This document shows, piece by piece, positions 6,062 to 42,188 of a stretch of 44,293 nt of DNA. Origin of the DNA: Escherichia phage vB_EcoP-UTI89UKE2. Under the pieces are notes generated by a model that worked only from the letters and a program-made list of their open reading frames with translations, searched no databases and was not told where the DNA came from. The position numbers were made by a program, and so were the translations under genes. Location: sequence record MZ234049.1; one strand, given 5' to 3'. Within the stretch, counting starts at the first letter, position 1. Each line of letters begins with the position of its first letter.

Positions 6062-6222
6062 TGGAAATTATTAAACCAGTATTGAATATCGGTATTGAGA
6101 TCCTATTCATGCTTGTGATCGCAGATTATGCTGCACGATATGGATTCAAGAAAGCGGTGAAACTTATCGTTGCATCTGGTTTTCTTATGTCAATGTTCTT
6201 TATTGTAACACGCCTTATCTAG
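6061..6222 (+). CDS. small hydrophobic protein (53 aa)
   Basis: ATG overlaps the primase stop (TAATG); one predicted transmembrane helix; TAG at 6220-6222. Confidence 0.4.
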   Translation: MEIIKPVLNIGIEILFMLVIADYAARYGFKKAVKLIVASGFLMSMFFIVTRLI

Positions 6223-6233
6223 TGTATTTATCA

Positions 6234-6267
6234 GGGCTTGTCTCACATGTGAGACAGGCTCTTATTA
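6234..6267 (+). terminator. palindrome hairpin (core TGTCTCACATGTGAGACA, 6239-6256) with GC clamp and U-rich tail
   Basis: 18-bp perfect palindrome extended by GGCT/AGGC and followed by TCTTATT. Confidence 0.45.
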
Positions 6268-6294
6268 AGTACATTAAATAACTGGAGATTGATT

Positions 6295-6978
6295 ATGTAT
6301 AAATTAGTATTGAATGCAGGTGATTATGTTCGTAACATCAATGCAACCTCACGTAGATATCGTTGCCGTGGTACTGTGACTAATGTAAGTGAAAACAGCT
6401 ACTATGTAGAGTACAGTAATGGTATTAGACAGGCTTATCAAAAGGAATCAGCACATAACTACCTTGAGAAGATTGGAGAGGTAAGCAATCAATGTAAGTG
6501 CGTACACGATGAGATTTGCGATAAGTGTGCCCGCCAGATGCATAAAATGCTATTATACCCTCTTCGCTATGGTGCTGGCATTCAAACCTTATCAGAGGCA
6601 TATGGCAAAGGTAAGACTACACTTAATAAAGATCGCCGCAATGTAATCACTGGTAAGACTCAAAGTGAAATGATTAAGCAATGTGGCACTGCACTAGGTG
6701 TTACGCAGTTTAACACTCGTGCTCTTGGTAAATCCACAGGACAAGCTATGGTGAAGATTGGTGAAGCCATGATGCACCCAAATGTACCTGTGCGAATCAT
6801 GGATGTTGACCATGCAATCACAGAACACGGTACACCACGACGTGTAGCTAATAAGCATTTTGCCGACACTATAGAAGGTATTATCCGTAAGCAAGGGTTG
6901 AAAGGTCTTCACCTCTTGAATGGTGAAGAATTACTGTATCTCCCTATTGTTACTGAAGAAACCTACGTGAATATTTAA
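6295..6978 (+). CDS. hypothetical protein (227 aa) with Cys cluster CKCVHDEICDKC
   Basis: ORF with RBS GGAG at 6284-6287 and ATG at 6295. The track start at 6289 is a TTG extension. Confidence 0.7.
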   Translation: MYKLVLNAGDYVRNINATSRRYRCRGTVTNVSENSYYVEYSNGIRQAYQKESAHNYLEKIGEVSNQCKCVHDEICDKCARQMHKMLLYPLRYGAGIQTLSEAYGKGKTTLNKDRRNVITGKTQSEMIKQCGTALGVTQFNTRALGKSTGQAMVKIGEAMMHPNVPVRIMDVDHAITEHGTPRRVANKHFADTIEGIIRKQGLKGLHLLNGEELLYLPIVTEETYVNI

Positions 6979-6988
6979 GGAGTTAATC

Positions 6989-7075
6989 ATGACTAAAGTT
7001 CTAATTTATAAACAACGAGGTCTTAAGGCTTATGCTATTGTAGCACCAAATGGTGTTAAAAAAAGTAAGTTGTAA
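6989..7075 (+). CDS. small ORF (28 aa)
   Basis: AGGAG RBS then ATG at 6989; TAA at 7073-7075. Confidence 0.25.
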   Translation: MTKVLIYKQRGLKAYAIVAPNGVKKSKL

Positions 7076-7100
7076 GCCTCTTGCAATAAAAGGTGCAGGT

Positions 7101-7205
7101 ATGTCTGCTAACTTACAATTGCAACTTTTTGGCAATTTCACAGAAGCGCAATTCCGCAATAAACATGAAGTTATTGGTTCTTTTATGGTGAAACATGCAG
7201 AATAA
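7101..7205 (+). CDS. small ORF (34 aa)
   Basis: AGGTG RBS at 7091-7095, ATG at 7101, TAA at 7203-7205. Confidence 0.25.
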   Translation: MSANLQLQLFGNFTEAQFRNKHEVIGSFMVKHAE

Positions 7206-7404
7206 ACACAGCCTTAAGATGTTTGATGGTCACGAAGACCTGCAAGCACACATCACTAACCAAGCCTTCCTGTTTGCACAGTTAACTATGGCTGAAGCAA
7301 AGAAGAATAGTCTGACACGTGAGCAGGTTATCAAGGAGGCAACTTGGGAGCCACACCAAGGCAAATACATGGGCCAGAGATTAACTGTAACACGCAGTCG
7401 ATAA
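7195..7404 (+). CDS. hypothetical protein (69 aa; alternative start 7219)
   Basis: ORF ending just before a palindrome hairpin; start ambiguous. Confidence 0.45.
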   Translation: MQNKHSLKMFDGHEDLQAHITNQAFLFAQLTMAEAKKNSLTREQVIKEATWEPHQGKYMGQRLTVTRSR

Positions 7405-7410
7405 GTAAAG

Positions 7411-7440
7411 GGTTGTCTCACACATGAGACAGCCTTTCAT
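7411..7440 (+). terminator. palindrome hairpin variant TGTCTCA-CACA-TGAGACA with GC clamp and U-rich tail
   Basis: Arms TGTCTCA/TGAGACA at 7414-7431, flanked by GG/CC and followed by TTTCAT. Confidence 0.4.
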
Positions 7441-7461
7441 CATATTGATTGGAGGTGCATT

Positions 7462-7569
7462 ATGTCACGTGATTATGATTCTGATTGGGACTACTATGAC
7501 TCAATGAATCCAAAACCTGAACATTCAGATGATTATTATTGGGTGGAGGAAATGTATGAAGACTGTTGA
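7462..7569 (+). CDS. small acidic, aromatic-rich protein (35 aa)
   Basis: RBS GGAGG at 7451-7455, ATG at 7462; ends 14 nt inside the DNA polymerase gene. Confidence 0.35.
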   Translation: MSRDYDSDWDYYDSMNPKPEHSDDYYWVEEMYEDC

Positions 7570-10102
7570 TTGGAAGAAGGAGGCAGAAGGCCGTATCCTC
7601 GTGATGGATGCGGAAGCTAAAGGACTCCTTGACGCTATCCGCTATGGTCATCGTGAAGATGTGCATATCATTTGCTGCATGGACTTGCTTACTACCGAGG
7701 AGTTTCTCTTCTTTGACCCGTATGAGATGCGTGACCCTGAAGCAAGAGAACACCTGAAGGAATGGGAAGGTCATCAAGATGGTGACTTGGTTGATGGTGT
7801 TAACTTCCTGAAGCACTGTGAAGCTATTGTGTCGCAGAACTTCCTAGGGTACGACGGCCTTCTATTTGAGAAAGCATTCCCTGATATCTGGAAAGGCTTT
7901 AACTATACCGAGAGACGCGGCAAGGGCAGACTCCGCGCTGACCTGTGTCCTGTACGCGTCATGGATACGCTGGTCATGAGTCGCCTGTTAAACCCCGATA
8001 GACGCCTCCCTCCGCAAGCATACGCCAAAGGCATGGGTAACGTCGCCCCTCACTCAATTGAGGCGCACGGCATCCGTATAGGCCGTTATAAGCCGGAGAA
8101 CGAGGATTGGTCTAAGCTAACTGACCACATGGTTCACCGTGTACGGGAGGACGTGGCGATAGGCCGTGACTTGTTCCTCTGGCTCTTTAACGGGGAATGG
8201 ATGGAGCACAAACGCCGTGGCGTGAATAAACGCACTGGCCTAGGTATTGAGACAGCCTTCCACATGGAGTCCATTGTGGCGCTGGAGATGAGCCGTCAGG
8301 CCGAGCGTGGATTCCGTCTGGATATAGATAAAGCATTAGCACGATGCGAGGAATTGGACGCTAAGATTGATGAGACAGTCGCAGCGTTCCGTCCGCACAT
8401 GCCTATGCGTATCAAGTCTAAACCTTTTAAACCGGAAGAAAAGAATGAAGTATGCCAACGCGCAAATGAGTATGGAGCTAGCAACAATATACCTACTGTC
8501 CTTGACCCCTCTCACTTTCTTCACGCAGAGAGACGAGGAGATCGCAAGACAGTATGGAGTGTCACTACTAAGTCTGGTGATTGGTCGGCTAGCGTCAAGA
8601 AAGACTTTCCTCACCTTAGAGGAAACCGTAATGACACGCCAAGCATCAAGTGGATTGGCGCTTACTCGCCTGTTACTTTCGAAGAGATTCCCTTGGGTAA
8701 CAGGGATACAGTTAAGCAAGTGCTCTATGATTATGGATGGAAAGGTGTTGAATTTAACGATACCGAGCAAGCGCATCTCGATGAGCATGGCGTATTACCC
8801 AAGCCTTGGAGTGGGAAGATAAATGAAAAGTCCCTTACTTTATGGCAAGAGAGAGCCGCACGTGAAGGTAAAACAGTCCCTGATTGGTGCTTGGGTATCG
8901 CTGCATGGTACATACTCGTATCCCGTCGTGGTCAGATCCTCAACCGTGGTGACGTTGAAGCCTTCGACCAGAAGGGGGTATGGCCTTCGCAAGCTGGTAT
9001 ACGAAAGTGTCGCGGCCTTGTACCTGTAGCATTTAACAAGGAGTTAGGAATCAATGCGCAGCAATACTACGAAAGGTACGGATGCTGGCCTACGTCAGAC
9101 AAGGATGACGGAGAATGGCGTGTGCCAGCTATTGCTATTAGTATTGGAACTTCTACGTTCCGTATGCGTCATCGTAACGTGGTTAATATTCCTGCCCGTG
9201 GTTTGTATCCTTTACGTGATTTATTCATAGCCGGTAAAGGTAAGCTAATCCTTGGTTGTGATGGTGCTGGTCTTGAACTACGTGTACTGTCTCACTTCAT
9301 GAATGACCCTGAATATCAAGATATTGTACTGCATGGTGACATTCACACCCATAATCAAATGAAGGCTGGTCTTCCTAAGCGTGACATGGCGAAGACATTT
9401 ATATATGCCTTCCTATATGGATCTGGTATAGCTAACCTTGCAGCAGTATGTGGTGTTACTGAGGAAGAAATGGAGGAAGTTGTGGCAAGATTTGAGGTTG
9501 AACTACCATCTCTTGCACGCCTTCGTGAGAATGTTATCGCACAAGGTAACAAGTTTGGCTACCTACAAGCACCTGATGGTCATTGGGGTCGCATCCGTAT
9601 GTCTGGTGGTGAACTTAAAGAGCACACTATGCTTAACGTACTACTCCAGATGACTGGTTCTCTGTGTATGAAATACGCATTGGTCAGAGCGTTTGCAGTG
9701 ATGCGCAAGGAAGGTGTGGCCTTAGATAGCATGGGAAACCCTTGCGGTATAGCTAACGTGCACGATGAAATCCAGATGGAAGTCCCTGAAGATGAGGTCT
9801 TGTATCTCAACTATGACTTGCCTTTCACCTTAGAAGGGTTCGAAACAGAGAAGGCTGCTGTGAAAGCAGTGTTCGATGCAGAGGAGAAACGTGTTCATGT
9901 GGATTCTGAAGGACGTATGTGGTCTGCTGCAAATCTCGTTAGCGTTGATGCTGATGCTGGTGTACTTCATTGCCAGCGTCGTTATCACCGTGCAGGGCAT
10001 ATCATTGCCGATGCAATGACTTGGGCTGGTCATTATTTGAAGATGCGTTGTCCGATGGCAGGTGAGTATAAGATTGGTGCAAGCTGGAAGGAAACACACT
10101 GA
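7556..10102 (+). CDS. DNA polymerase (family A, T7 gp5-like, with 3'-5' exonuclease domain)
   Basis: Motifs VMDAEAKGL (exo), GCDGAGLELRVLSHF (motif A), KTFIYAFLYGSG (motif B) and NVHDEIQMEV (motif C). RBS GGAGG at 7546-7550. The track start at 7529 is a non-ATG extension. Confidence 0.93.
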   Translation: MKTVDWKKEAEGRILVMDAEAKGLLDAIRYGHREDVHIICCMDLLTTEEFLFFDPYEMRDPEAREHLKEWEGHQDGDLVDGVNFLKHCEAIVSQNFLGYDGLLFEKAFPDIWKGFNYTERRGKGRLRADLCPVRVMDTLVMSRLLNPDRRLPPQAYAKGMGNVAPHSIEAHGIRIGRYKPENEDWSKLTDHMVHRVREDVAIGRDLFLWLFNGEWMEHKRRGVNKRTGLGIETAFHMESIVALEMSRQAERGFRLDIDKALARCEELDAKIDETVAAFRPHMPMRIKSKPFKPEEKNEVCQRANEYGASNNIPTVLDPSHFLHAERRGDRKTVWSVTTKSGDWSASVKKDFPHLRGNRNDTPSIKWIGAYSPVTFEEIPLGNRDTVKQVLYDYGWKGVEFNDTEQAHLDEHGVLPKPWSGKINEKSLTLWQERAAREGKTVPDWCLGIAAWYILVSRRGQILNRGDVEAFDQKGVWPSQAGIRKCRGLVPVAFNKELGINAQQYYERYGCWPTSDKDDGEWRVPAIAISIGTSTFRMRHRNVVNIPARGLYPLRDLFIAGKGKLILGCDGAGLELRVLSHFMNDPEYQDIVLHGDIHTHNQMKAGLPKRDMAKTFIYAFLYGSGIANLAAVCGVTEEEMEEVVARFEVELPSLARLRENVIAQGNKFGYLQAPDGHWGRIRMSGGELKEHTMLNVLLQMTGSLCMKYALVRAFAVMRKEGVALDSMGNPCGIANVHDEIQMEVPEDEVLYLNYDLPFTLEGFETEKAAVKAVFDAEEKRVHVDSEGRMWSAANLVSVDADAGVLHCQRRYHRAGHIIADAMTWAGHYLKMRCPMAGEYKIGASWKETH

Positions 10103-31800: not shown

Positions 31801-32171
31801 AAGACCAAGATGAATATTTGGAAGAGAAGTTATCGCCTAAAGGGTTGGCCTTTGGTGCAATGGGTATGATGAGTACAACTGCTGTATTTAGTCTAGGTGG
31901 AGATTTCTTAGGTGGCCTAGGTGTTCTACCTTCTGAGTTAGTACAATCCCGTTATGAGGCTGGCTTTCAGACTAAGGGTTTGATAGACCAAATACCACTA
32001 GTAGGTGTTGGTCAAGATGCATATCGTTTAGCAGATTCTATAACTAAATATGCAGAGGGTGATACAGAAGGTGTAGATGTGGCACGTAGGGCTTTACGCT
32101 TAGTGCCTCTAACTAATGTAATAGGAATCCAGAACGCATTGCGTTATGGCTTAGATGAACTGGAGGATTGA
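28863..32171 (+). CDS. large internal virion protein (1102 aa; gp16-like core/ejection protein)
   Basis: RBS GGAGG; size and position. Confidence 0.8.
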   Translation: MEQDIKTNWAGYVQSTPEPFSIEAAPVSAPTIRQRNELQEQVLEAKADADILGAVGAAFQNEWLAFGGKRWYDRATADFTPQPDFEIQPEQREALRFKYGTDMMQTITEGVRSEDELNFRIQNADEDLERNKRIAQAGWVGSVATIGAAVLDPVGWVASIPTGGAAKVGLVGRAVRGAIAAGVSNAAIESVLVQGDMTRDLDDIMVALGSGMAMGGVIGAVARGRATKLSEQGDDRAASIVRSADAGDRYVRAVADDSIGAMRVKGEEVLTEGAFDVSSKGEDLLKTLQREGNAIDMTPRRWAGTLSALGTVVHSSQDASVRGLGARLFESPQGLGMQKASASLMQNTNLNRLKSADMNRFNDGFDLWLKENNINPVAGHTNSHYVQQYNEKVWEAVRIGMDESTPKSIRMAAEGQQAMYREALALRQRSGEAGFEKVKADDKYMPDIFDSMKARRQFSMHDKEDIIELFSRAYQNGSRKVPKEVADDIARAQVNRVADATLTGQLSFEKAMSGQTKAEYEALMRKAGFSDEEIEKMVEALDNKETRDNISNRAKMSLGLDVTQEYNGIRMRDFMNTNVEELTDNYMKEAAGGAALARQGFSTYQAALNAIDLVERNARNAAKDTKAHAQFEAESAKIRQSEPDYKKAQEKIEELKKRLKLKEKDEAAGLAIDEEIRQMREGLRLIMGKSIDSNPQDLSTKMLRRGRDITGVLRLGQMGFAQLGELANFMGEFGIAATTMALGKQFRFTSKALRNGDGFFRDKNLAEVERMVGYIGEDNWLTTKGARPDEFGDVTTVRGMMAHFDQSMNSIRRAQTNLSLFRMAQGSLERMTNRQIALSFIDHLEGKKIIPQKKLEELGLTQGFMTNLQKHYDANSKGSGLLGFDTMPYAMGETLANAIRRKSGLIIQRNFIGDEGIWMNKALGKTFAQLKSFSLVSGEKQFGRGIRHDKIGLAKKTAYGFALGSIVYAAKAYVNSIGREDQDEYLEEKLSPKGLAFGAMGMMSTTAVFSLGGDFLGGLGVLPSELVQSRYEAGFQTKGLIDQIPLVGVGQDAYRLADSITKYAEGDTEGVDVARRALRLVPLTNVIGIQNALRYGLDELED

Positions 32172-33133
32172 TGAGTTATACTTTCACAGAACATATAGCC
32201 AACGGTACGCAAGTAACCTATCCCTTTAGATTTGCTGGCAGGGATAAAGGCTATCTTCGTGCCTCAGATGTGATAGTGGAATCTCTTCAAGGTAACACTT
32301 GGATTGAGGTTACATCTGGCTGGCAATTAACTGGTACGCATCAAATCACTTTTGATGTAGCACCTGTTGCAGGTTTGAAGTTCCGTATTCGAAGGGAAGT
32401 ACAAAAGGAGTATCCATACGCTGAGTTTGACCGTGGTGTTACCTTGGATATGAAGTCTTTAAATGGTTCTTTCATTCATATACTGGAGATTACACAGGAG
32501 TTACTTGATGGGTTTTATCCAGAAGGATACTTCATTAAGCAGAATGTAAGCTGGGGCGGCAATAAGATTACTGACCTAGCTGATGGTGAGAATCCAAAAG
32601 ATGCAGTAAATAAGTCACAGCTAGATGCTATCGACAAGAAGCATACTGATTGGAACTCTGCACAAGATATAGAGATTGCTGGTATTAAGAGAGGAATGGT
32701 GTCTGGTGTATCTCATCGCACTATTCCTTGGTATATGGTCGCCTCCGGTGGAGAGCAAATCATTCGACCACCTTACTCATTTGATGATGCTATGGTGTTT
32801 ATAAACGGTGTATTCCAGCATGAACTAGCAGGTGCAGTATCAGTGGGGTATAATGTTATAACCCTGTCCGAGCCATTACAGGCTGGGGATGAAGTTTATG
32901 TGCTTATCGGTAGTCGCTTAACCCCACCTACAAGTGCGGATACTATCCTCTTTACACAAGCAGTGAGTGAAGGTACACAATCTATCGACATTGTAACGGC
33001 TTTCCAACGTCTTGATGTATACTTGGATGGCCTGTATCAACCTAATAATGCTTATGAAATCGTAGGGTCTACTATCACTTTCAGTGAGCCATTACCTGAG
33101 TGTGTCGTAAGTATGAAGCTACAACTAGTGTAA
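32171..33133 (+). CDS. tail fiber/tailspike adaptor protein (T7 gp17 N-terminal domain-like)
   Basis: N-terminal MSYTFTEHIANGTQVTYPFRF resembles the gp17 tail-attachment domain; no long fibre shaft. Confidence 0.7.
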   Translation: MSYTFTEHIANGTQVTYPFRFAGRDKGYLRASDVIVESLQGNTWIEVTSGWQLTGTHQITFDVAPVAGLKFRIRREVQKEYPYAEFDRGVTLDMKSLNGSFIHILEITQELLDGFYPEGYFIKQNVSWGGNKITDLADGENPKDAVNKSQLDAIDKKHTDWNSAQDIEIAGIKRGMVSGVSHRTIPWYMVASGGEQIIRPPYSFDDAMVFINGVFQHELAGAVSVGYNVITLSEPLQAGDEVYVLIGSRLTPPTSADTILFTQAVSEGTQSIDIVTAFQRLDVYLDGLYQPNNAYEIVGSTITFSEPLPECVVSMKLQLV

Positions 33134-33337: not shown

Positions 33338-33620
33338 ACATGCAGCTACGGAAGATGAGGTTGGCATCCTGCATGGTGCTATTACCAAAATCTTTAATAA
33401 GAAAGCACAGGCAATACTGGACACTATAGAAGAAGACCCAGATGCAGCACTGCATTTAGTCTCTGGTAAAGACATTGGAGCTATGTGTAAGTGGGTTCTT
33501 GATAATGGTATTACCGCTACACCTGCTGCACAGCAGGAGGAGTCCAAGCTATCTAAGCGCCTCAAGGCTATCCGAGAGGCATCAAGTGGCAAGATTATTC
33601 AATTCACTAAGGAGGATTGA
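33321..33620 (+). CDS. terminase small subunit (gp18-like); GTG start after RBS GGAGG
   Basis: Immediately upstream of, and overlapping, the large terminase gene. Confidence 0.5.
   Translation: MSVHNKHAATEDEVGILHGAITKIFNKKAQAILDTIEEDPDAALHLVSGKDIGAMCKWVLDNGITATPAAQQEESKLSKRLKAIREASSGKIIQFTKED
33413..33435 (+). promoter_or_regulatory. phage promoter-like sequence (AATACTGGACACTATAGAAGAAG) inside the small terminase gene
   Basis: One mismatch to the consensus, embedded in coding sequence (encodes ILDTIEED). Confidence 0.55.
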
Positions 33621-35518
33621 TGGCTAAGGCAAGAGAATCACAAGCGGAGGCTCTTGCCAGATGGGAGATGCTACAGGAGTTACAGCAGACCTTTCCTTAC
33701 ACAGCGGAAGGTTTGCTTCTCTTTGCAGATACAGTTATTCATAACTTAATTGCAGGCAACCCTCATCTGATTCGTATGCAGGCGGATATCTTGAAGTTCC
33801 TATTTTACGGACACAAGTACCGCCTCATCGAAGCGCCTCGTGGTATCGCTAAGACAACACTATCAGCAATCTATACGGTATTCCGTATTATTCATGAACC
33901 ACATAAGCGTATCATGGTTGTGTCCCAAAACGCCAAGCGAGCAGAGGAAATCGCAGGTTGGGTAGTTAAAATCTTCCGTGGCTTAGACTTTCTTGAGTTT
34001 ATGCTGCCGGATATCTACGCTGGGGACCGTGCATCCGTTAAGGCGTTTGAGATTCATTACACCCTACGTGGTAGTGATAAGTCTCCTTCTGTATCCTGTT
34101 ACTCAATCGAAGCAGGTATGCAGGGTGCTCGTGCTGATATTATTCTAGCGGATGACGTAGAGTCGATGCAGAATGCTCGTACGGCAGCGGGCCGTGCCTT
34201 GCTTGAGGAACTGACTAAGGAGTTTGAATCTATCAACCAGTTTGGGGATATCATTTACCTTGGTACACCTCAGAACGTAAACTCTATCTACAACAACCTG
34301 CCTGCTCGTGGTTACTCTGTTCGTATCTGGACTGCGCGTTACCCTTCAGTAGAGCAAGAGCAATGTTATGGCGACTTCCTTGCACCTATGATTGTTCAAG
34401 ATATGAAGGACAACCCAGCACTTCGCTCAGGGTACGGGTTGGATGGTAATAGTGGTGCACCTTGTGCCCCTGAAATGTATGATGATGAAGTCCTGATTGA
34501 GAAGGAAATCTCTCAGGGTGCTGCTAAGTTCCAGCTTCAGTTCATGCTTAACACTCGCATGATGGATGCTGACAGATACCCATTACGCCTGAACAATCTA
34601 ATCTTCACCTCGTTTGGTACAGAGGAAGTCCCTGTGATGCCTACGTGGAGTAATGATTCCATAAACATCATTGGTGATGCACCTAAGTATGGTAACAAGC
34701 CTACGGATTTCATGTACAGACCTGTAGCTCGCCCATACGAATGGGGTGCTGTCTCCCGCAAGATTATGTATATTGACCCTGCGGGTGGTGGTAAGAACGG
34801 AGATGAGACGGGTGTAGCCATCGTATTCCTGCACGGCACATTCATTTATGTGTATCAGTGCTTTGGTGTACCTGGCGGATACCGAGAGTCGTCCCTGAAT
34901 CGCATTGTGCAGGCCGCAAAGCAGGCGGGTGTTAAAGAGGTATTCATTGAGAAGAACTTTGGTCATGGCGCGTTTGAGGCGGTAATTAAGCCGTACTTTG
35001 AACGAGAGTGGCCTGTAACTCTGGAAGAGGATTACGCCACCGGACAGAAAGAGTTGCGTATCATTGAGACGCTGGAGCCGCTCATGGCAGCCCATAGGCT
35101 TATCTTCAATGCAGAGATGGTGAAGTCAGACTTTGAGTCGGTACAGCACTATCCGCTTGAACTACGCATGTCCTACAGTCTTTTCAATCAAATGTCGAAC
35201 ATAACGATTGAGAAGAACAGCCTCCGGCACGATGACCGCCTAGACGCCCTGTATGGCGCTATACGGCAATTAACTTCTCAGATAGACTATGACGAGGTTA
35301 CACGGATTAATCGCCTCAGAGCGCAGGAGATGCGCGATTACATCCATGCTATGAATACACCTCATCTACGCAGGGCAATGCTATATGGAGATTACGGTAC
35401 TGAGCGAAGAGTGACCAACACTTCCGTAGCGATGCAGCAGCGAGTTTACGGGCAGAACTACCGAAATAAATCGGCAAGCAGAAATACACTTTCTGCAAGG
35501 ATTTCAAGGACTTATTAA
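33620..35518 (+). CDS. terminase large subunit (gp19-like)
   Basis: Walker A-like RGIAKTT ... ILADDVE (Walker B) and C-terminal nuclease region. The track start at 33617 is a TTG. Confidence 0.9.
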   Translation: MAKARESQAEALARWEMLQELQQTFPYTAEGLLLFADTVIHNLIAGNPHLIRMQADILKFLFYGHKYRLIEAPRGIAKTTLSAIYTVFRIIHEPHKRIMVVSQNAKRAEEIAGWVVKIFRGLDFLEFMLPDIYAGDRASVKAFEIHYTLRGSDKSPSVSCYSIEAGMQGARADIILADDVESMQNARTAAGRALLEELTKEFESINQFGDIIYLGTPQNVNSIYNNLPARGYSVRIWTARYPSVEQEQCYGDFLAPMIVQDMKDNPALRSGYGLDGNSGAPCAPEMYDDEVLIEKEISQGAAKFQLQFMLNTRMMDADRYPLRLNNLIFTSFGTEEVPVMPTWSNDSINIIGDAPKYGNKPTDFMYRPVARPYEWGAVSRKIMYIDPAGGGKNGDETGVAIVFLHGTFIYVYQCFGVPGGYRESSLNRIVQAAKQAGVKEVFIEKNFGHGAFEAVIKPYFEREWPVTLEEDYATGQKELRIIETLEPLMAAHRLIFNAEMVKSDFESVQHYPLELRMSYSLFNQMSNITIEKNSLRHDDRLDALYGAIRQLTSQIDYDEVTRINRLRAQEMRDYIHAMNTPHLRRAMLYGDYGTERRVTNTSVAMQQRVYGQNYRNKSASRNTLSARISRTY

Positions 35519-35677: not shown

Positions 35678-35953
35678 ATGGCTAATGATTATAGTAGTCA
35701 ACCATTAACAGGTAAGTCTAAGAGAAAGCAGGTACAACCTGTAAGTGAAGCACTAATGCTTCCGGTAATCTCGAAAGAGGAAGCTAGTAAGAAAAGCAAT
35801 GTTATTAATGATGCCACCAAATCAGGTAAACAGAAAGGGGCCATGGTATGCCTTGAAGTGGATGGTGCATTGAAGATTGCTATCGCTGTTGATGGCAAAG
35901 AAGATTCAGAGTGGAAGTTAGTGACAGGGGAACCCACTATTACCCCAGTTTAA
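35678..35953 (+). CDS. hypothetical protein (91 aa), paralog 1 of a tandem family
   Basis: RBS AGGAGAG then ATG at 35678. Shares SGKQxGAMV ... IAVA ... W with the next two ORFs. The track start at 35609 lies in the leader hairpin. Confidence 0.6.
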   Translation: MANDYSSQPLTGKSKRKQVQPVSEALMLPVISKEEASKKSNVINDATKSGKQKGAMVCLEVDGALKIAIAVDGKEDSEWKLVTGEPTITPV

Positions 35954-35971: not shown

Positions 35972-36259
35972 ATGGCTAAATATGGTACTACAGGTTCTGT
36001 TACGGGTCAGGCTTTTCGAGTGAAAGCAGTACAAACTATTGCAACGGCAATTCCTATGCCTGTTGTTGCTGAAGAAGACCTTAAGAAGAAAGATCATCCT
36101 ATCAACATCAAATATTTATCAGGTAAACAGAGAGGTGCAATGGTTGTTATTTCGAGAGCGGACACAACCGTGCATATTGCTGTTGCACGTGGTAGTGAGC
36201 CCACCGACGTTTGGGATGTAACTGCTATGGACTCCCTTGCTGTTACACCAGGGGAGTGA
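35972..36259 (+). CDS. hypothetical protein (95 aa), paralog 2
   Basis: RBS AAGGAGG; motif KYLSGKQRGAMVVISRA ... HIAVARGSEPTDVWDV. Confidence 0.6.
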   Translation: MAKYGTTGSVTGQAFRVKAVQTIATAIPMPVVAEEDLKKKDHPINIKYLSGKQRGAMVVISRADTTVHIAVARGSEPTDVWDVTAMDSLAVTPGE

Positions 36260-36266
36260 TATTATC

Positions 36267-36944
36267 GTGTTAGGTATTACAGGACAACGAAGTGTAAGTC
36301 ATCAAGCTAAGGTTGCCACGGAAGTGGCTCCTATCGTTGATATCTCAGATGTGTCTGACGTTAACTCTTATCTAAACCAAAAGTACCTATCAGGTAAACA
36401 GGAAGGATATACTGTTCTGACTAAGAAAGGTTCACGTTATTCATTGTATGCTGCAACAGGTTCTAAGCCAGAAGATAAGTGGTTGCCTTTAGAGCAAGCA
36501 ACCCTACCTGATTCGAGTGCATTAGAGCTAATTGACACCATCGATGTTGAAGTTGCAAGTGCAAGCGACACAGTAGAGGTTAATGTAACCAAAGAGAGGA
36601 CTGTGTGCATCCAGACGCCTATGAAGGACTTAGCAGGTGATACAGTTTACCGGCAAGAATTGACTGCCAACATTAACCTTACCATTAATGAAAACGGAAG
36701 CCCAAGCGATACGGTTAAATTAAACATATCAATTCCTAATTTGCCAGGAACATCTAGTGGGTCTTACTATACAGTTGACAATGTGCTGTGTACTTCTTTT
36801 GGAGACGACAGTCCTGTTATTGCCAATATAGATGTCGATAAGGCTACCACTAACTTGATTGCTGTTACACTTCGTAAAGAGACGGCAACAGATATTAGGC
36901 TGTCTCTTGTAATTAGGTGGTCAATGCCAGTGGAGATTGTATAA
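36267..36944 (+). CDS. hypothetical protein (about 225 aa), paralog 3 with C-terminal extension; GTG start inferred
   Basis: Motif KYLSGKQEGYTVL ... YAATGSKPEDKWLPL; start codon uncertain (TTG 36237 or GTG 36267). Confidence 0.55.
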   Translation: MLGITGQRSVSHQAKVATEVAPIVDISDVSDVNSYLNQKYLSGKQEGYTVLTKKGSRYSLYAATGSKPEDKWLPLEQATLPDSSALELIDTIDVEVASASDTVEVNVTKERTVCIQTPMKDLAGDTVYRQELTANINLTINENGSPSDTVKLNISIPNLPGTSSGSYYTVDNVLCTSFGDDSPVIANIDVDKATTNLIAVTLRKETATDIRLSLVIRWSMPVEIV

Positions 36945-37288
36945 TGCTTAACAAATACTTCAAGCGTAAAGAGTTCGCTTGCCGTTGTGGGTGCGGTACA
37001 TCCACTGTTGATGCTGAATTACTGCAGGTAGTCACAGATGTGCGTGAGCACTTTGGTACTCCTGTTGTTATCACTTCTGGTCATCGCTGTGCTAAGCACA
37101 ATGCTAATGTAGGTGGAGCTAAGAACTCTATGCATCTTACTGGTAAGGCTGCTGACATTAAGGTACGAGGCATCTTACCTTCTGATGTACATAAGTACCT
37201 TACTGATAAGTACCAAGGCAAGTATGGTATTGGTAAATATACCTCCTTTACTCATATTGATGTACGTGACGGGTGTGCACGATGGTAG
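36944..37288 (+). CDS. endolysin, peptidase M15 family (zinc peptidase)
   Basis: FACRCGCG ... SGHRCAKHNANVGGAKNSMHLTGKAADI ... HIDVRDG; ATG overlaps the upstream stop. Confidence 0.8.
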   Translation: MLNKYFKRKEFACRCGCGTSTVDAELLQVVTDVREHFGTPVVITSGHRCAKHNANVGGAKNSMHLTGKAADIKVRGILPSDVHKYLTDKYQGKYGIGKYTSFTHIDVRDGCARW

Positions 37289-37396
37289 GTTGTGTTGCAT
37301 GGTGTGAACGCATGGTTGCTAAGGCTTCAGAGGAAGGCAACTATGAAGATTGGCAGAACTACTCAACTTTATTAGCTCAATGGAAAGGGAGATGCA

Positions 37397-37546
37397 ATGA
37401 AAAAGCTGTTCAAATCTAAGAAGGTTGTAGGTGCACTAGTTGCATTGGCAATTGCTCTTGTTTCTGTAGGTCTTGGTGTAGACCTTGGCTCTGGCACGGA
37501 ATCCTCTGTGACAGATGTGGTATGCCAAGTAATCACCTGTGAATAA
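37397..37546 (+). CDS. small membrane protein (49 aa), possible lysis-associated protein
   Basis: N-terminal MKKLFKSKK followed by a hydrophobic helix; lies between endolysin and spanins. Confidence 0.35.
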   Translation: MKKLFKSKKVVGALVALAIALVSVGLGVDLGSGTESSVTDVVCQVITCE

Positions 37547-37760
37547 GGTGCTTGAGGTGGTGGCAGGTCTTATTGGCCTGCTGCTTGCCGCTAAGAAGAA
37601 GAAGGAAGAGAAGGAGGTACAAAGTGAGGCGAATCATGCTAGCGACAATCCTGCTGATTGGTTCGCTGATCACTTCAGGGTGTCAGACGGCGTTACCAGA
37701 GAATCCAAAGGTGAAACCTCTGAAGCCGACGCTTACGGCAGTCTACGAGGTGGACGATAG
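37539..37760 (+). CDS. putative i-spanin (Rz-like; start codon ambiguous, GTG candidates at 37539-37560)
   Basis: N-terminal TM segment VLEVVAGLIGLLLAA followed by a charged periplasmic region; overlaps the o-spanin gene. Confidence 0.45.
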   Translation: MNKVLEVVAGLIGLLLAAKKKKEEKEVQSEANHASDNPADWFADHFRVSDGVTRESKGETSEADAYGSLRGGR

Positions 37761-37833
37761 AGTCTGCTTCAGTAAACCTGACGCTACAAAATTGGGTCTG
37801 TACATTCTCTCGCTAGAACGCGGATATAATTAA
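37636..37833 (+). CDS. putative o-spanin lipoprotein (Rz1-like)
   Basis: Signal plus lipobox-like LITSGC, then a Pro-rich mature part with a second Cys; gene starts inside the i-spanin gene in another frame and extends past it. Confidence 0.55.
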   Translation: MLATILLIGSLITSGCQTALPENPKVKPLKPTLTAVYEVDDRVCFSKPDATKLGLYILSLERGYN

Positions 37834-37862
37834 TACATAGTTTTATGTATCAGTGTCTTACG

Positions 37863-37885
37863 ATTTACTGGACACTATAGAAGAG
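37863..37885 (+). promoter_or_regulatory. phage RNAP promoter (ATTTACTGGACACTATAGAAGAG) for the tailspike module
   Basis: Exact consensus. Confidence 0.8.
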
Positions 37886-37964
37886 ATGAGATAGTGCCGT
37901 TCTTTTGAGCGGCCTATTACTAGCCAATCTTCATAGGGAGGATTGGGAAGTAATAGGAGAGTAT

Positions 37965-38300
37965 ATGGCTAAGTTAACTAAACCCAAGACAACGGGCTTA
38001 CTACATAGAGATACTGTACTAGCTAACTTATTAGATAATTTACTATCTAAAAGGCGTGTTACATTTGAAGGTGTAGCTCCAAGTGAAGATACTAAAATTG
38101 AGATAGAAGTACCTGTGACAGGAGACTTAGATTCTTCGTGGGCATCAATTGTATCATTAAGTACACCTGCACTTTGTACAGCTTGGATCACTAAACTGTC
38201 AGATACTACTTTAGAGATTCATGTATTTCATACAGCACAAGTAGAAATAGACATAGAGGTAGATGTTTACGTTCTAGGTAAGCACACTGTCAGTGCGTAA
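37965..38300 (+). CDS. hypothetical protein (111 aa) preceding the tailspike gene
   Basis: RBS GGAG then ATG at 37965. A 111-aa ORF at this position is recalled for K1E-type phages, where K1-5 carries a second tailspike instead. Confidence 0.6.
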   Translation: MAKLTKPKTTGLLHRDTVLANLLDNLLSKRRVTFEGVAPSEDTKIEIEVPVTGDLDSSWASIVSLSTPALCTAWITKLSDTTLEIHVFHTAQVEIDIEVDVYVLGKHTVSA

Positions 38301-38366
38301 GCACTGCTTTTCGCGCAACTTTTCTTAAAGGTTATCATGATGGTAGCCTTTCAGAAAGGAGGTTAC

Positions 38367-40802
38367 ATGATTCAAAGACTAGGTTCTTCATTAGTTAAAT
38401 TCAAGAGTAAAATAGCAGGTGCAATCTGGCGTAACTTGGATGACAAGCTCACCGAGGTTGTATCGCTTAAAGATTTTGGAGCCAAAGGTGATGGTAAGAC
38501 AAACGACCAAGATGCAGTAAATGCAGCGATGGCTTCAGGTAAGAGAATTGACGGTGCTGGTGCTACTTACAAAGTATCATCTTTACCTGATATGGAGCGA
38601 TTCTATAACACCCGCTTCGTATGGGAACGTTTAGCAGGTCAACCTCTTTACTATGTGAGTAAAGGTTTTATCAATGGTGAACTCTATAAAATCACGGACA
38701 ACCCTTATTACAATGCTTGGCCTCAAGACAAGGCGTTTGTATATGAGAATGTGATATATGCACCCTACATGGGTAGCGACCGTCATGGTGTTAGTCGTCT
38801 GCATGTATCATGGGTTAAGTCTGGTGACGATGGTCAAACATGGTCTACTCCAGAGTGGCTAACTGATCTGCATCCAGATTACCCTACAGTGAACTATCAT
38901 TGTATGAGTATGGGTGTATGTCGCAACCGTCTGTTTGCCATGATTGAAACACGTACTTTAGCCAAGAACGCACTAACCAATTGTGCATTGTGGGATCGCC
39001 CTATGTCTCGTAGTCTGCATCTTACTGGTGGTATCACTAAGGCTGCAAATCAGCGTTATGCAACAATCCATGTACCTGATCACGGATTATTCGTGGGCGA
39101 TTTTGTTAGCTTCTCTAATTCTGCGGTAACAGGTGTAACTGGTGATATGAAAGTTGCAACAGTTATAGATAAGGACAACTTCACGGTTCTTACAGCCAAT
39201 CAGCAGACCTCTGATTTGAACAATGCTGGAAAGAATTGGCACATGGGTACTTCCTTCCATAAGTCTCCATGGCGTAAGACAGATCTTGGCCTGATACCTC
39301 GTGTTACTGAAGTTCATAGCTTTGCTACTATTGATAACAATGGCTTTGTTATGGGTTATCACCAAGGCGACGTAGCTCCACGCGAAGTTGGTCTTTTCTA
39401 CTTCCCTGATGCTTTTAACAATCCATCTAATTATGTTCGTCGTCAGATACCATCTGAGTACGAACCGGGTGCTGCAGAGCCATGCATCAAGTACTATGAC
39501 GGTGTATTATACCTTATCACTCGTGGTACTCGTGGCGACCGACTAGGAAGCTCTTTGCATCGTAGTAGAGATATAGGTCAGACTTGGGAGTCACTGAGAT
39601 TTCCACATAATGTTCATCATACTACCTTACCTTTTGCTAAAGTAGGAGATGACCTTATTATGTTTGGTTCAGAACGTGCAGAAAATGAATGGGAAGCAGG
39701 TGCACCAGATGATCGTTACAAGGCATCTTATCCTCGTACCTTCTATGCACGATTGAATGTAAACAATTGGAATGCAGATGATATTGAATGGGTTAACATC
39801 ACAGACCAAATCTATCAAGGTGACATTGTGAACTCTAGTGTAGGTGTAGGTTCTGTTGTAGTTAAAGACAGCTACATTTACTATATCTTTGGTGGTGAAA
39901 ACCATTTCAACCCAATGACTTATGGTGACAACAAAGATAAAGACCCATTTAAAGGTAATGGACACCCTACTGATATATACTGCTATAAGATGCAGATTGC
40001 AAATGACAGTCGTGTATCTCGTAAGTTTACATATGGTGCAACTCCTGGTCAGGCTATACCTACTTTCATGGGTACTGATGGTATTCGCACTATTCCTGCT
40101 CCACTTCACTTATCAGGAGAGGTAGTTGCCGCAGATATGACTGTCGAACACCTTACCTTGAAGGCAAGTACAAGTGCTAATATTCGCTCAGAGATGCTGA
40201 TGGAGGGTGAATATGGGTTCATTGGTAAGACTATACCAACGGATAACCCAACCGCCCAACGTGTTATCATCTCTGGTGGAGAGGGTACAGCAGCAGATAC
40301 CGGTGCGCAAATTACCTTACACGGAGCAGGTTCTAGCACTTCTAGACGCGCAGTATATAATGCCAATGAGCACTTGTTCCAAAGTGGAGCTATCATGCCA
40401 TACAATGATAACGTGTATCCTGCTGGTGGCCCTCGTAATAGATTCACTACTATCCATCTTACAAGTGACCCTATTATTACGTCGGATGCCACTCATAAGT
40501 ATGGATCACAAGGTATTGATGAGAGTGTACTAAAGGCATGGGGTAAGGTTAGCTTCAAGCAGTACAAGTTGATTGGTGAGATGTCTCGTGGTGTGCACCA
40601 CACTCACTTTGGTGTATTGGCACAAGACATTGTAGCTGCTTTTGCATCCGAAGGGTTAGATGCAATCGACTTCGGCATTGTCTCCTTCGAAGAAGGTCAG
40701 TTTGGTGTTAGATATAGTGAAATCTTAATCTTGGAGGCTGCTTATACTCGCTATCGTTTAGACAAGTTAGAGGAGATGTATGCCACTAATAAAATCAGTT
40801 AA
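38367..40802 (+). CDS. tailspike endo-N-acetylneuraminidase (endosialidase) with C-terminal intramolecular chaperone domain
   Basis: 811 aa from ATG 38367 (RBS AAGGAGG). Sequence recognised from memory as K1-phage endosialidase, including the C-terminal block ending YATNKIS. Confidence 0.88.
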   Translation: MIQRLGSSLVKFKSKIAGAIWRNLDDKLTEVVSLKDFGAKGDGKTNDQDAVNAAMASGKRIDGAGATYKVSSLPDMERFYNTRFVWERLAGQPLYYVSKGFINGELYKITDNPYYNAWPQDKAFVYENVIYAPYMGSDRHGVSRLHVSWVKSGDDGQTWSTPEWLTDLHPDYPTVNYHCMSMGVCRNRLFAMIETRTLAKNALTNCALWDRPMSRSLHLTGGITKAANQRYATIHVPDHGLFVGDFVSFSNSAVTGVTGDMKVATVIDKDNFTVLTANQQTSDLNNAGKNWHMGTSFHKSPWRKTDLGLIPRVTEVHSFATIDNNGFVMGYHQGDVAPREVGLFYFPDAFNNPSNYVRRQIPSEYEPGAAEPCIKYYDGVLYLITRGTRGDRLGSSLHRSRDIGQTWESLRFPHNVHHTTLPFAKVGDDLIMFGSERAENEWEAGAPDDRYKASYPRTFYARLNVNNWNADDIEWVNITDQIYQGDIVNSSVGVGSVVVKDSYIYYIFGGENHFNPMTYGDNKDKDPFKGNGHPTDIYCYKMQIANDSRVSRKFTYGATPGQAIPTFMGTDGIRTIPAPLHLSGEVVAADMTVEHLTLKASTSANIRSEMLMEGEYGFIGKTIPTDNPTAQRVIISGGEGTAADTGAQITLHGAGSSTSRRAVYNANEHLFQSGAIMPYNDNVYPAGGPRNRFTTIHLTSDPIITSDATHKYGSQGIDESVLKAWGKVSFKQYKLIGEMSRGVHHTHFGVLAQDIVAAFASEGLDAIDFGIVSFEEGQFGVRYSEILILEAAYTRYRLDKLEEMYATNKIS

Positions 40803-40929
40803 GCAATCTGCTGTACGCCAGAACACAGAAGAACTTATTCAATCAGGACGTGACCCTAAGCAGGCATATGCCATTGCCAAGGATGTACAACGTCGTGACT
40901 TGAAGAAACCTTCTGCATCTTCTGCTTAA
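40780..40929 (+). CDS. small basic ORF (49 aa) overlapping the 3' end of the tailspike gene
   Basis: ATG at 40780 in the +1 frame after GGAG; TAA at 40927-40929. Confidence 0.25.
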   Translation: MPLIKSVKQSAVRQNTEELIQSGRDPKQAYAIAKDVQRRDLKKPSASSA

Positions 40930-40939
40930 GCAGGTTAAT

Positions 40940-41100
40940 ATCTTAGTGTACACAAGGGCAGACCTAGGTTTGCTCTTAGTGCCATCAAAGGAGGGTGTAG
41001 GTATGTTATCTTTGTTGTGTATACTCAGTGATGTCCTAGGTCGTAAGAGGTACATTCTTAGTGAAGACCAAATAAGGGACGAGAAGATACGGAGGTCGCT
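40940..41100. repeat. CTTAGT(G) repeat copies to the left of the GC-rich terminal segment
   Basis: CTTAGTG at about 40942, 40975 and 41057; the 17-mer AAGGGCAGACCTAGGTT (40954-40970) also occurs at 3854-3870. Confidence 0.5.
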
Positions 41101-41139
41101 CACAAAGTAACCAAAGTCAAAATTTTGATATAGGCGTGT

Positions 41140-41460
41140 GTGAGGTGTCTCGCCCTCGCCCTCGCCGGATTTCCCCCATATGGGGCCGCGCTGCGGTTGG
41201 CTTGGGAATTGGGCTGGGCTGGTCCGTCTTCGACGGGTGGCCTAGGGCTTGCCGAGGTCTGCTCTTAGTGGCTGCACAAGGAGAACGCCTAGGAAGCGCT
41301 AGGGCACGCCTTAGTATTGGACAAGGTGATTGCCTTAGTGCAATCGCTTAGGGCTTACACAGGGCGTTTTAGGGCCATTCCTGAGCGTTTGACAGGGTGT
41401 GAGGGCGTGGGCTATCTGTTCGTTTCGTTCACTACGCTTGCGCTCCGTTCACTCGCTCAC
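41140..41460. other. GC-rich non-coding segment, probable genome terminus / direct terminal repeat region
   Basis: No credible ORF; CGCCCT x3 and the palindrome CCCCATATGGGG (41174-41185), which resembles the CCCCCATAGGGGG element near the T7 left end; flanked by heptamer repeat arrays as the T7 terminal repeat is flanked by CCTAAAG arrays. Confidence 0.5.
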
Positions 41461-41465
41461 GTGTA

Positions 41466-41595
41466 CCTTAGGTTATTACTTGATGGATAGCTTAGGTTAA
41501 CCTTAGTGGAATGCCTTAGTTAAAGACTTAGTGCTTATCTTAGTAACAGCTTAGTAGTGTACCTTAGTTGGTCTTAGTGAATAGCCTTAGTGATT
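41466..41595. repeat. dense array of about 11 C/T-TTAG-G/T-T/G heptamer repeats at 10-13 bp spacing
   Basis: CCTTAGGTT, GCTTAGGTT, CCTTAGTGG, GCCTTAGTT, ACTTAGTGC, TCTTAGTAA, GCTTAGTAG, CCTTAGTTG, TCTTAGTGA, CCTTAGTGA, with more copies out to 41915. Confidence 0.75.
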
Positions 41596-41788
41596 GCACA
41601 TGCAAGCATGTAAGATGCCAATAGGTCGCGGTCGGTAGACCGCTAAAGAAAGAGAATAGTAATAAGATGCAGTAGGAGGAACACCAGAAACCTAGCCAAC
41701 CTAGCCTATCCTAGCTCTGTATCTATTGCTTTTCCTTAGTCTAACATGTGAGACAACCTAGATTTATCTTAGTGATGATAGCTTAGTG

Positions 41789-41817
41789 TTGACAAGGCCG
41801 TCTCAATGTAATACTAT
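41789..41817 (+). promoter_or_regulatory. candidate host sigma70 early promoter (-35 TTGACA, 17-bp spacer, -10 TACTAT)
   Basis: Hexamer match and spacing; upstream of the first early gene. Confidence 0.4.
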
Positions 41818-41884
41818 TCATCGCGTAGGCAGCACTGAGGTGCTTAGTAGCCAGCTAGTAAGGCATACGAAGAGACTAGCGCTT

Positions 41885-41915
41885 ACATTGCTCTTTAACA
41901 ATTTGCTTAGTGTAA
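41885..41915 (+). promoter_or_regulatory. early leader module 1 containing CTCTTTAACAATTTG
   Basis: First of five copies of a CTCTTTAACAAT-containing element before early genes; the same core is recalled from the T7 gene 0.3 leader (RNase III site R0.3). Confidence 0.45.
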
Positions 41916-41960
41916 CCTATGTATGCCGTGGTTAATTACTTATTGAATGAGGGATTAACT

Positions 41961-42188
41961 ATGAAAGTACAAGTAAAAGCGTACAACATGCCAGTTGATG
42001 AGATTCAGCACTTCCTCGATAAAGGTTATGACTTATGTAAGATGCGCACACCAGATAACTATGATTATTCGCCTAAGTATCTGCACTATATTGATCTTAA
42101 GATGGGTAATAAATTAGTTATAACTGGTACAGCATATAACCGCATTATCAAAACTCTTAAAGAGGGTGCTAATCATGACATTAAATAA
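41961..42188 (+). CDS. early protein (75 aa)
   Basis: RBS GAGGGA then ATG at 41961. Confidence 0.55.
   Translation: MKVQVKAYNMPVDEIQHFLDKGYDLCKMRTPDNYDYSPKYLHYIDLKMGNKLVITGTAYNRIIKTLKEGANHDIK

Follow-up and report, generated by a model that had tools for sequence, protein, structure and literature searches.

Which capsule does Escherichia phage vB_EcoP-UTI89UKE2 recognize, and with how many tailspikes? The question is raised by positions 38367-40802 of sequence record MZ234049.1, analyzed here within the whole deposited stretch of 44,293 nucleotides (the window). An original prediction, made from the sequence letters, had described this locus as a single-tailspike module specific for the K1 capsule. 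The region almost certainly encodes a K1E-type endosialidase tailspike, as part of the module by which a Vectrevirus of the K1E type binds its receptor. The K1E-type system is a textbook case of capsule-specific phage adsorption. Endosialidases of this type are in use as reagents for polysialic acid, and trials as therapeutics against K1 strains have been made with them. The genome is already deposited and published, and enzyme family, adaptor architecture and modular exchange have been described for K1E, K1-5 and PK1A. The sole addition, small and tentative, concerns the short gene preceding the tailspike, a homologue of K1E gp46, whose product is read below as a tailspike shortened by an internal deletion.

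Gene and domain organization of the tailspike

All the features of the module described below lie on the + strand. The open reading frame (ORF) of the tailspike spans 38337-40802. Counted from the ATG at 38367, it specifies a protein of 811 amino acids (aa) with MIQRLGSSLVK at its N-terminus, the gene covering 38367-40802 with the stop codon included. A ribosome-binding site, AAGGAGG, is found 4 nucleotides (nt) 5' of this ATG. Two other in-frame ATG codons, at 38337 and 38340, were dropped as candidate starts because MIQRLGSSLVK is the N-terminus throughout the family, and because neither has a ribosome-binding site; both fall within an intergenic hairpin. The deposited coding sequence UTI89UKE3_052 of the related record MZ234050 (38368-40803) has the same limits as this ORF, with an offset of +1. 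In MZ234050 the endosialidase goes under 'unclassified head-tail protein', while 'non-contractile tail fiber protein' is the name given to the adaptor; the K1 specificity is therefore hidden in the database. Recognition of the endosialidase corrects this vague label, and predicts a K1-restricted phage.

The Pfam domains of the protein are End_N_terminal (aa 39-102), End_beta_propel (aa 103-545, 735 bits), End_beta_barrel, nested at aa 214-296 (151 bits), End_tail_spike (aa 546-705, 283 bits) and Peptidase_S74, 'chaperone of endosialidase' (aa 706-763). The four endosialidase profiles matched across their full length, far above the cut-offs (as did Peptidase_S74, for score), and their order is that of the endosialidases, an N-terminal extension being followed by a six-bladed beta-propeller with an inserted beta-barrel, and by a stalk. 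At the DNA level the catalytic propeller corresponds to 38673-40001, the nested barrel to 39006-39254, the stalk to 40002-40481, and the C-terminal intramolecular chaperone domain (aa 706-811), for which self-cleavage before Ser706 is predicted, to 40482-40799. A search of the PDB aligned the endoNF structures 1v0e and 3gvl with aa 38-705 (E=0), and the structure of the endoNF chaperone domain, 3gw6, with aa 589-764 (E=2e-58). The relatives of the protein are endosialidases. Aa identity is 98.2% to the enzyme of PK1A (endoNA, EF507428), across all 811 residues and with the C-terminal part included, 97.3% to the enzyme of the K1-5-like phage ULINTec7, and 90% to K1E gp47. Domains, structures and identity to PK1A thus agree with the predicted endo-N-acetylneuraminidase carrying a C-terminal chaperone block.

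The closest structural reference is endoNF of phage K1F (PDB 1V0E, 3GVL, 3GW6), in which propeller, barrel, stalk and chaperone are the same, and the catalytic residues and the Ser-Lys pair of the chaperone are conserved. The two enzymes differ in the way they are held on the virion. EndoNF is anchored by a built-in N-terminal domain of the T7 gp17 type, and its solved chains align only from aa 38 of the protein described here, which features an 11-residue peptide instead and relies on a separate adaptor protein.

Predicted enzyme activity and mosaic structure

The active site of endoNF, which comprises His350, Glu581, Arg596 and Arg647, aligns with H140, E371, R386 and R437 of the tailspike. 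The self-cleavage pair S706/K711 aligns with endoNF S911/K916, within the motif IIT/SDATHK. In the comparison with K1E gp47, the ratio of nonsynonymous to synonymous substitution rates (dN/dS) is 0.065 over aa 1-550, which denotes strong purifying selection on the catalytic part. By far the most likely reading of the sequence is that the tailspike is an active endosialidase, which would hydrolyze alpha-2,8-linked polysialic acid as a trimer: the catalytic residues are intact, as are two positions known to matter in PK1A, H417 and N489, identity to the characterized enzyme of PK1A amounts to 98.2%, and dN/dS is low.

H417 and N489 bear on a different possibility, that the tailspike binds polysialic acid without cleaving it, and that infection is independent of capsule degradation. 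PK1A2 is a derivative of PK1A of this kind, binding-only, in which two substitutions abolish catalysis (PMC5715158), and natural as well as laboratory variants of this enzyme are seen to lose catalysis through just two changes. The deposited endosialidases of PK1A and mutPK1A2 differ by H417Y, N489D and a change at position 614, PK1A being the odd one out at the last of these. Both H417 and N489 are kept in the tailspike described here, which is thus wild type at both inactivating positions. Some residues could speak for a loss of activity. Six substitutions are peculiar to this tailspike (N248S, S258T, P277A, S352N, D368G and H531N), and D368G is only 3 residues away from the catalytic Glu371; moreover, the residue aligned to endoNF S848, presumably a sialic-acid contact in the stalk, is Ala. 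Yet none of the six private substitutions hits one of the catalytic residues listed above, all of which are conserved, and the stretch around the Ala is common to K1-5-type enzymes. The strong purifying selection on the catalytic part, and the isolation of the phage as a plaque-former on the fully encapsulated strain UTI89, also argue against a binding-only protein, which we regard as very improbable.

Relative to K1E, the tailspike has a mosaic structure. Up to about aa 550 it is 94-100% identical to gp47 of K1E; the identity then falls to 56-84% across the stalk and chaperone domains (56-78% within the stalk, aa 546-705), while identity to the ULINTec7 endosialidase stays at 92-100% from about aa 551 onward. 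The synonymous divergence (dS) from K1E rises from 0.14 for aa 1-550 to 1.53 for aa 551-811. Both the drop in identity and the jump in dS place a recombination junction at the boundary between propeller and stalk, near aa 550, and the C-terminal third of the protein is of the PK1A/K1-5 lineage, not of the K1E lineage.

Adaptor and anchor peptides

The protein encoded at 32171-33133 (320 aa) had been picked out as an adaptor of the gp17 N-terminal type, and this assignment holds. Pfam Phage_T7_tail matches aa 3-153 (27.3 bits vs. a cut-off of 25.2), the PDB entry 7y22_e, 'tail adaptor protein', matches over the full length (E=2e-84), and further matches are to the tail fiber family phrog_2710 and to K1E gp37, to which the protein is 99% identical. 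It features a T7 gp17-like N-terminal tail-docking domain and sites for two tailspikes, and is devoid of a receptor-binding domain of its own. The genes of the two spikes occupy adjacent places, referred to here as slot 1 and slot 2; the 811-aa endosialidase fills the latter, and the 111-aa protein the former.

Proteins in either slot start with a peptide of their own. The undecapeptide MIQRLGSSLVK (38367-38399) is invariant at the start of the slot-2 protein in the window, K1E, ULINTec7 and Mt1B1_P10, and in SP6 gp47. The heptapeptide MAKLTKP is found unchanged in the 111-aa ORF and is conserved in the K5 lyase and in the slot-1 protein of Mt1B1_P10; SP6 gp46 has M-SLTKP. A passage of PMC6872550, which cites Leiman 2007, has the anchor peptides of slot-1 and slot-2 proteins contacting the middle and the C-terminal sites of the adaptor; with its invariance, this makes MIQRLGSSLVK the peptide that would attach the tailspike to the C-terminal site.

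The adaptor gene lies 5 kb upstream of the tailspike genes, and the receptor-binding module is therefore bipartite. The 'modular receptor-binding cassette' of the original prediction holds in so far as adaptor and tailspike make up one module, and fails in so far as the parts were taken to be contiguous. The further claim that host-range switching takes place here is supported by the exchange of slot-1 segments among related phages, and by N-terminal anchor peptides that follow the published rule.

K1E (NC_007637) shows the same order of elements, namely promoter, 111-aa gp46, spacer with hairpin, and 811-aa endosialidase. Adaptor, gp46 and gp47 are 99%, 88% and 90% identical, respectively; the two phages share their anchor peptides, and neither genome has a K5 lyase. 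A difference resides in the C-terminal ~260 aa of the tailspike (stalk and chaperone domain), which derive from another lineage (56-84% identity, dS 1.5). In addition, a homing endonuclease gene splits the K1E terminase into 40A and 40B, whereas the large terminase of the window (33617-35518, 633 aa) is intact. As far as sequence can tell, every feature that defines the K1E-type endosialidase tailspike module is present, and the locus is to be counted as a member.

The present analysis shows homology at the sequence level, the order of the domains, the conservation of key residues, the promoter, the borders of the cassette and purifying selection; trimerization, self-cleavage, geometry of attachment, enzymatic activity and dependence on K1 are carried over from endoNF, endoNE, PK1A, K1E and K1-5. 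By analogy with these, the tailspike would fold as a trimer, aided by the C-terminal chaperone domain, which would then cut itself off before Ser706 by means of the Ser706/Lys711 pair. The mature spike would hang on the C-terminal site of the adaptor by its first 11 residues, MIQRLGSSLVK, the other site being occupied by the 111-aa protein through MAKLTKP. On a K1-encapsulated cell, with the stalk gripping the polymer, the active site of the propeller (Glu371, Arg386, Arg437) would cleave polysialic acid, and the phage would thereby bore its way across the capsule as far as the outer membrane.

Promoter and borders of the cassette

At 37863-37885, the 23-mer ATTTACTGGACACTATAGAAGAG reproduces exactly the consensus of SP6/K1E-type phage RNA-polymerase promoters; the predicted +1 is the G at 37880. 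With up to 3 mismatches allowed, the window contains 8 such sites, every one of them on the + strand, and 100 shuffled sequences contained none. The promoter at 37863-37885 is conserved in ULINTec7, and an equivalent one is annotated in the K1E record X78310. The promoter placed before the tailspike by the original prediction does exist upstream; it precedes the 111-aa ORF, and not directly the tailspike gene. The two genes are 66 nt apart, and the spacer hosts a hairpin (38319-38359) with a stem of ~18 bp, the 3' arm of which abuts the ribosome-binding site of the tailspike. RNA folding of 38296-38375 gave -22.5 kcal/mol (z = -2.8). Since the promoter precedes the 111-aa ORF, and only the hairpin-bearing spacer separates the two genes, ORF and tailspike appear to be co-transcribed as a gp46-gp47 operon. 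A scan of 37000-42000 for sigma-70 promoters and intrinsic terminators gave fewer matches than shuffled sequence; no + strand terminator was found after the tailspike, nor did the scan recover the 'terminator' with which gp46 ends in the annotation of KAW1A4500.

The borders of the slot-1 segment emerge from the comparison with dual modules of the K1-5 type (ULINTec7, AAPEc6), which share with the window the promoter, the 5' leader, ~9 slot-1 codons, the spacer and the endosialidase (97% aa identity). DNA homology to ULINTec7 extends through the spanin gene, promoter, leader and first ~9 codons of slot 1, and ends at 37990. It is lost over 37991-38274, where 284 bp in the window replace a lyase segment of 1866 bp, and is back from 38275, through the spacer (94% identity) into the endosialidase. 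In ULINTec7, a K5 lyase of 632 aa occupies slot 1, before the endosialidase; in the window, slot 1 encodes the 111-aa protein. A third variant is found at the same place in Mt1B1_P10, which has there a pectate-lyase-like protein of 479 aa.

Predicted capsule specificity and host

A K5-lyase-sized ORF had been looked for in the original prediction and reported absent, and the layout called single-tailspike and K1E-like. We concur. A tblastn search of the whole window with the K5 lyase found no lyase body, the matches being confined to the first 46 aa, within the 111-aa ORF, and to the C-terminal chaperone domain, within the endosialidase; it is the 111-aa ORF that sits in the place of the lyase. 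The other ORFs of the window coding for at least 300 aa are conserved phage genes only. A dual specificity for K1 and K5, as in K1-5, was rejected, the 1866-bp lyase segment of ULINTec7 being represented by 284 bp with no lyase body. Since the 111-aa protein is devoid of an enzymatic body, the phage is predicted to have a single capsule specificity, K1.

By megablast, 37800-41000 and 36200-37000 are 100% identical to phage vB_EcoP-UTI89UKE3 (MZ234050), with a constant offset of one base. UTI89UKE3 is classified as Autographiviridae, Molineuxvirinae, Vectrevirus. It comes from wastewater, was isolated on E. coli UTI89, and forms plaques on 4% of 79 urinary isolates (PMC8614997, Table 1). UTI89 is a K1-encapsulated cystitis isolate; it is lysed by the K1-specific phage K1F, to which a kpsM capsule mutant is resistant (PMC2906519). 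A K1-encapsulated E. coli as host, as had been predicted from the tailspike, is thus in line with the strain used for isolation. By analogy with the characterized phages, we infer that infection is restricted to K1-encapsulated E. coli and depends on the capsule. It tempers this conclusion that the published table gives the host range of UTI89UKE3 as a percentage only.

The 111-aa protein

The original prediction had a 111-aa ORF before the tailspike, rather than a second tailspike gene. The ORF is there, at 37965-38300, with its own ribosome-binding site and promoter; the opposition does not stand, the product being a homologue of slot-1 tailspikes with the adaptor-binding heptapeptide kept. 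The product is 88% identical to K1E gp46. It is made up by the MAKLTKP anchor and a beta-rich domain of ~85 aa, lacks an enzymatic beta-helix, and has no match in Pfam. Its first ~25 aa are homologous to the N-terminus of the K5 lyase, and the K5 lyase in the PDB, 2x3h, matched there.

Close relatives are few. A word-indexed search among 5.8 billion proteins found 4 close clusters, all of 111 aa. The link to the C-terminal domain of tailspikes became visible only when a profile was run exhaustively, with HMMER, against 1.8 billion representatives; one informative distant relative, P0005 (493 aa), was obtained at E=1e-5. P0005 features the N-terminus MSKLTKPTTTGILHKD and a pectate-lyase-like body, and its last ~88 residues align with residues 22-107 of the 111-aa protein (23-106 in the HMMER alignment). 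It is the slot-1 tailspike in a phage contig with the gene order of the window, and is followed by a 626-aa slot-2 protein starting with MALQRLGSSLVK. Comparison of gp46 with P0005 by hhalign gave a probability of 87%, which rose to 95% (E=3e-8, 88 columns) once the homologous tailspike C-terminus of E212, a P22-like phage, was included. These alignments suggest that gp46 is a slot-1 tailspike that lost the enzymatic beta-helix, keeping anchor and C-terminal domain. An internal deletion, and not a plain C-terminal truncation, would account for this, because the anchor peptide joins the C-terminal domain of the tailspike directly. A protein with He_PIG immunoglobulin-like repeats, P0006, was also retrieved (E=2e-5), but through six short stretches; it was discarded as a homologue, and provides only a weak hint of a beta-sandwich.

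The family appears to be maintained, and not decaying. Values of dN/dS range from 0.35 to 0.42, and relatives 58% identical, at a dS of 0.84, still give 0.35 and keep the length of 111 aa. The 58%-identical copy resides in two metagenomic contigs, L009 and L010, where it precedes a tailspike of 663 aa unrelated to the endosialidase outside the anchor region. A copy of the same length next to an unrelated tailspike, along with a dN/dS of 0.35, is what argues for maintenance.

What the protein is there for can be read in more than one way. One reading, which we hold to be about as likely as not, is a maintained 'minimal tailspike', which would fill and stabilize the first site of the adaptor, or bind a secondary receptor, and would travel independently of the endosialidase. 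Several points tell against it. The link to the tailspike C-terminal domain stands at 22-24% identity and on few sequences. The AlphaFold2 model, built on a 5-sequence alignment, has a mean predicted local distance difference test score (pLDDT) of 58.7, with only a beta-rich outline, and a Foldseek search of this model against the PDB gave nothing at E<=0.001; no fold was assigned to the protein on account of both results. In the laboratory phage mutPK1A2, a one-base deletion, pointed out by its depositors, shifts the frame of the gp46 homologue (gene p59, 165-305 of L014) and leaves a product of 46 aa. Since mutPK1A2 was propagated nonetheless, the protein is dispensable, at least in that background. 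The frameshift also fits a protein which is the decaying remnant of a lost second tailspike, functionless and possibly not assembled, with the first site of the adaptor left empty. So do the tiny size of the family and the absence of an enzymatic domain and of a Pfam match, and a review describes K1E gp46 as 'very small and truncated', without enzymatic activity (PMC6966330). However, a remnant would hardly keep frame and exact length at 58% identity, a dS of 0.84 and a dN/dS of 0.35, be retained beside a wholly different slot-2 tailspike in L009 and L010, or still have a ribosome-binding site and a promoter of its own. A passage of the same review, a secondary source citing Leiman 2007, moreover has K1E gp46 attached to the gp37 adaptor by cryo-electron microscopy. 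Decay is, on these grounds, rather unlikely.

A second, cryptic receptor specificity is a further alternative. In this case the beta-sandwich-like domain of the 111-aa protein would bind some other surface structure, and the module would be a dual one, as in K1-5 and SP6. The homology to the virion-distal C-terminal domain of tailspikes, the weak similarity to the immunoglobulin-like He_PIG repeats and the purifying selection are all compatible with binding. Yet no binding or enzymatic motif was identified in the protein, the He_PIG match is marginal and scattered over the repeats, the host range of the phage is narrow (PMC8614997), and K1E is reported to infect K1 strains only (PMC6966330), so that a specificity of this kind is improbable. 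If gp46 is indeed an internally deleted but maintained tailspike, it would tell something of the way in which two-slot adaptor modules lose a specificity and keep their structural integrity. Such knowledge would be useful for the engineering of phage host range, and no surprise for the field.

The contigs carrying distant slot-1 proteins deserve a description of their own. L009 (ERR3179028_16, 156-2548) and L010 (ERR3179123_186, 1453-2802), both Logan contigs, derive from an SP6/K1E-like phage, and encode the gp46-like 111-aa protein and the 663-aa slot-2 tailspike. The latter starts with MLQRLSSKLVR; no endosialidase domains and no solved relative were found for it. The Logan contig L011 (SRR33881051_11221, 5001-8453) has the gene order of the window and two pectate-lyase-like tailspikes, of 493 and 626 aa. 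The first of these, of 493 aa, shares 42% identity in body and C-terminal domain with the tailspike of E212, a P22-like phage, and exemplifies the exchange of a receptor-binding body between mounting on an adaptor and attachment of the P22 type.

Other features of the genome

A 49-aa ORF (40780-40929, phrog_2423) overlaps the 3' end of the tailspike gene by 23 nt, in another frame. It is annotated in ULINTec7, in KAW1A4500 (as 'similar to 48 of K1-5') and in mutPK1A2, and is not annotated in K1E.

Between gp42 and the endolysin gene, a 225-aa ORF is found at 36267-36944 (phrog_32357, no Pfam match). It is absent from K1E, ULINTec7 and SP6, and present in about nine other Vectrevirus-like records; contig L011 hosts at the same place a counterpart of 233 aa, 29% identical. 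The first ~80 aa are paralogous to two small proteins encoded upstream, at 35678-35953 and 35972-36259. These are themselves paralogues of ~91-95 aa, homologous to K1E gp41 and gp42 (phrog_2725), and are called 'acetyl-CoA acetyltransferase' in RefSeq. The label looks like an annotation artefact, because such an enzyme would be far larger, and neither protein is matched in Pfam.

The sequence of the window is a permuted assembly, in which the alignment with the left end of K1E starts at 41148 and that with the right end goes no further than 41414. The direct terminal repeat of K1E is 288 bp long, that annotated in Mt1B1_P10 ~267 bp, and the physical ends of the genome are probably at 41148-41414, which would hold one copy of a repeat of ~267 bp. 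A GC-rich ORF of 71 aa similar to K1E gp48 (41136-41351), doubtful as a gene, falls inside the presumed repeat. The hexamer CTTAGT is clustered in the same area, 19 of the 30 copies on the + strand of the window residing in the non-coding interval 40800-42000, around the presumed ends; the cluster may correspond to the repeat arrays that flank the terminal repeats in T7-like phages.

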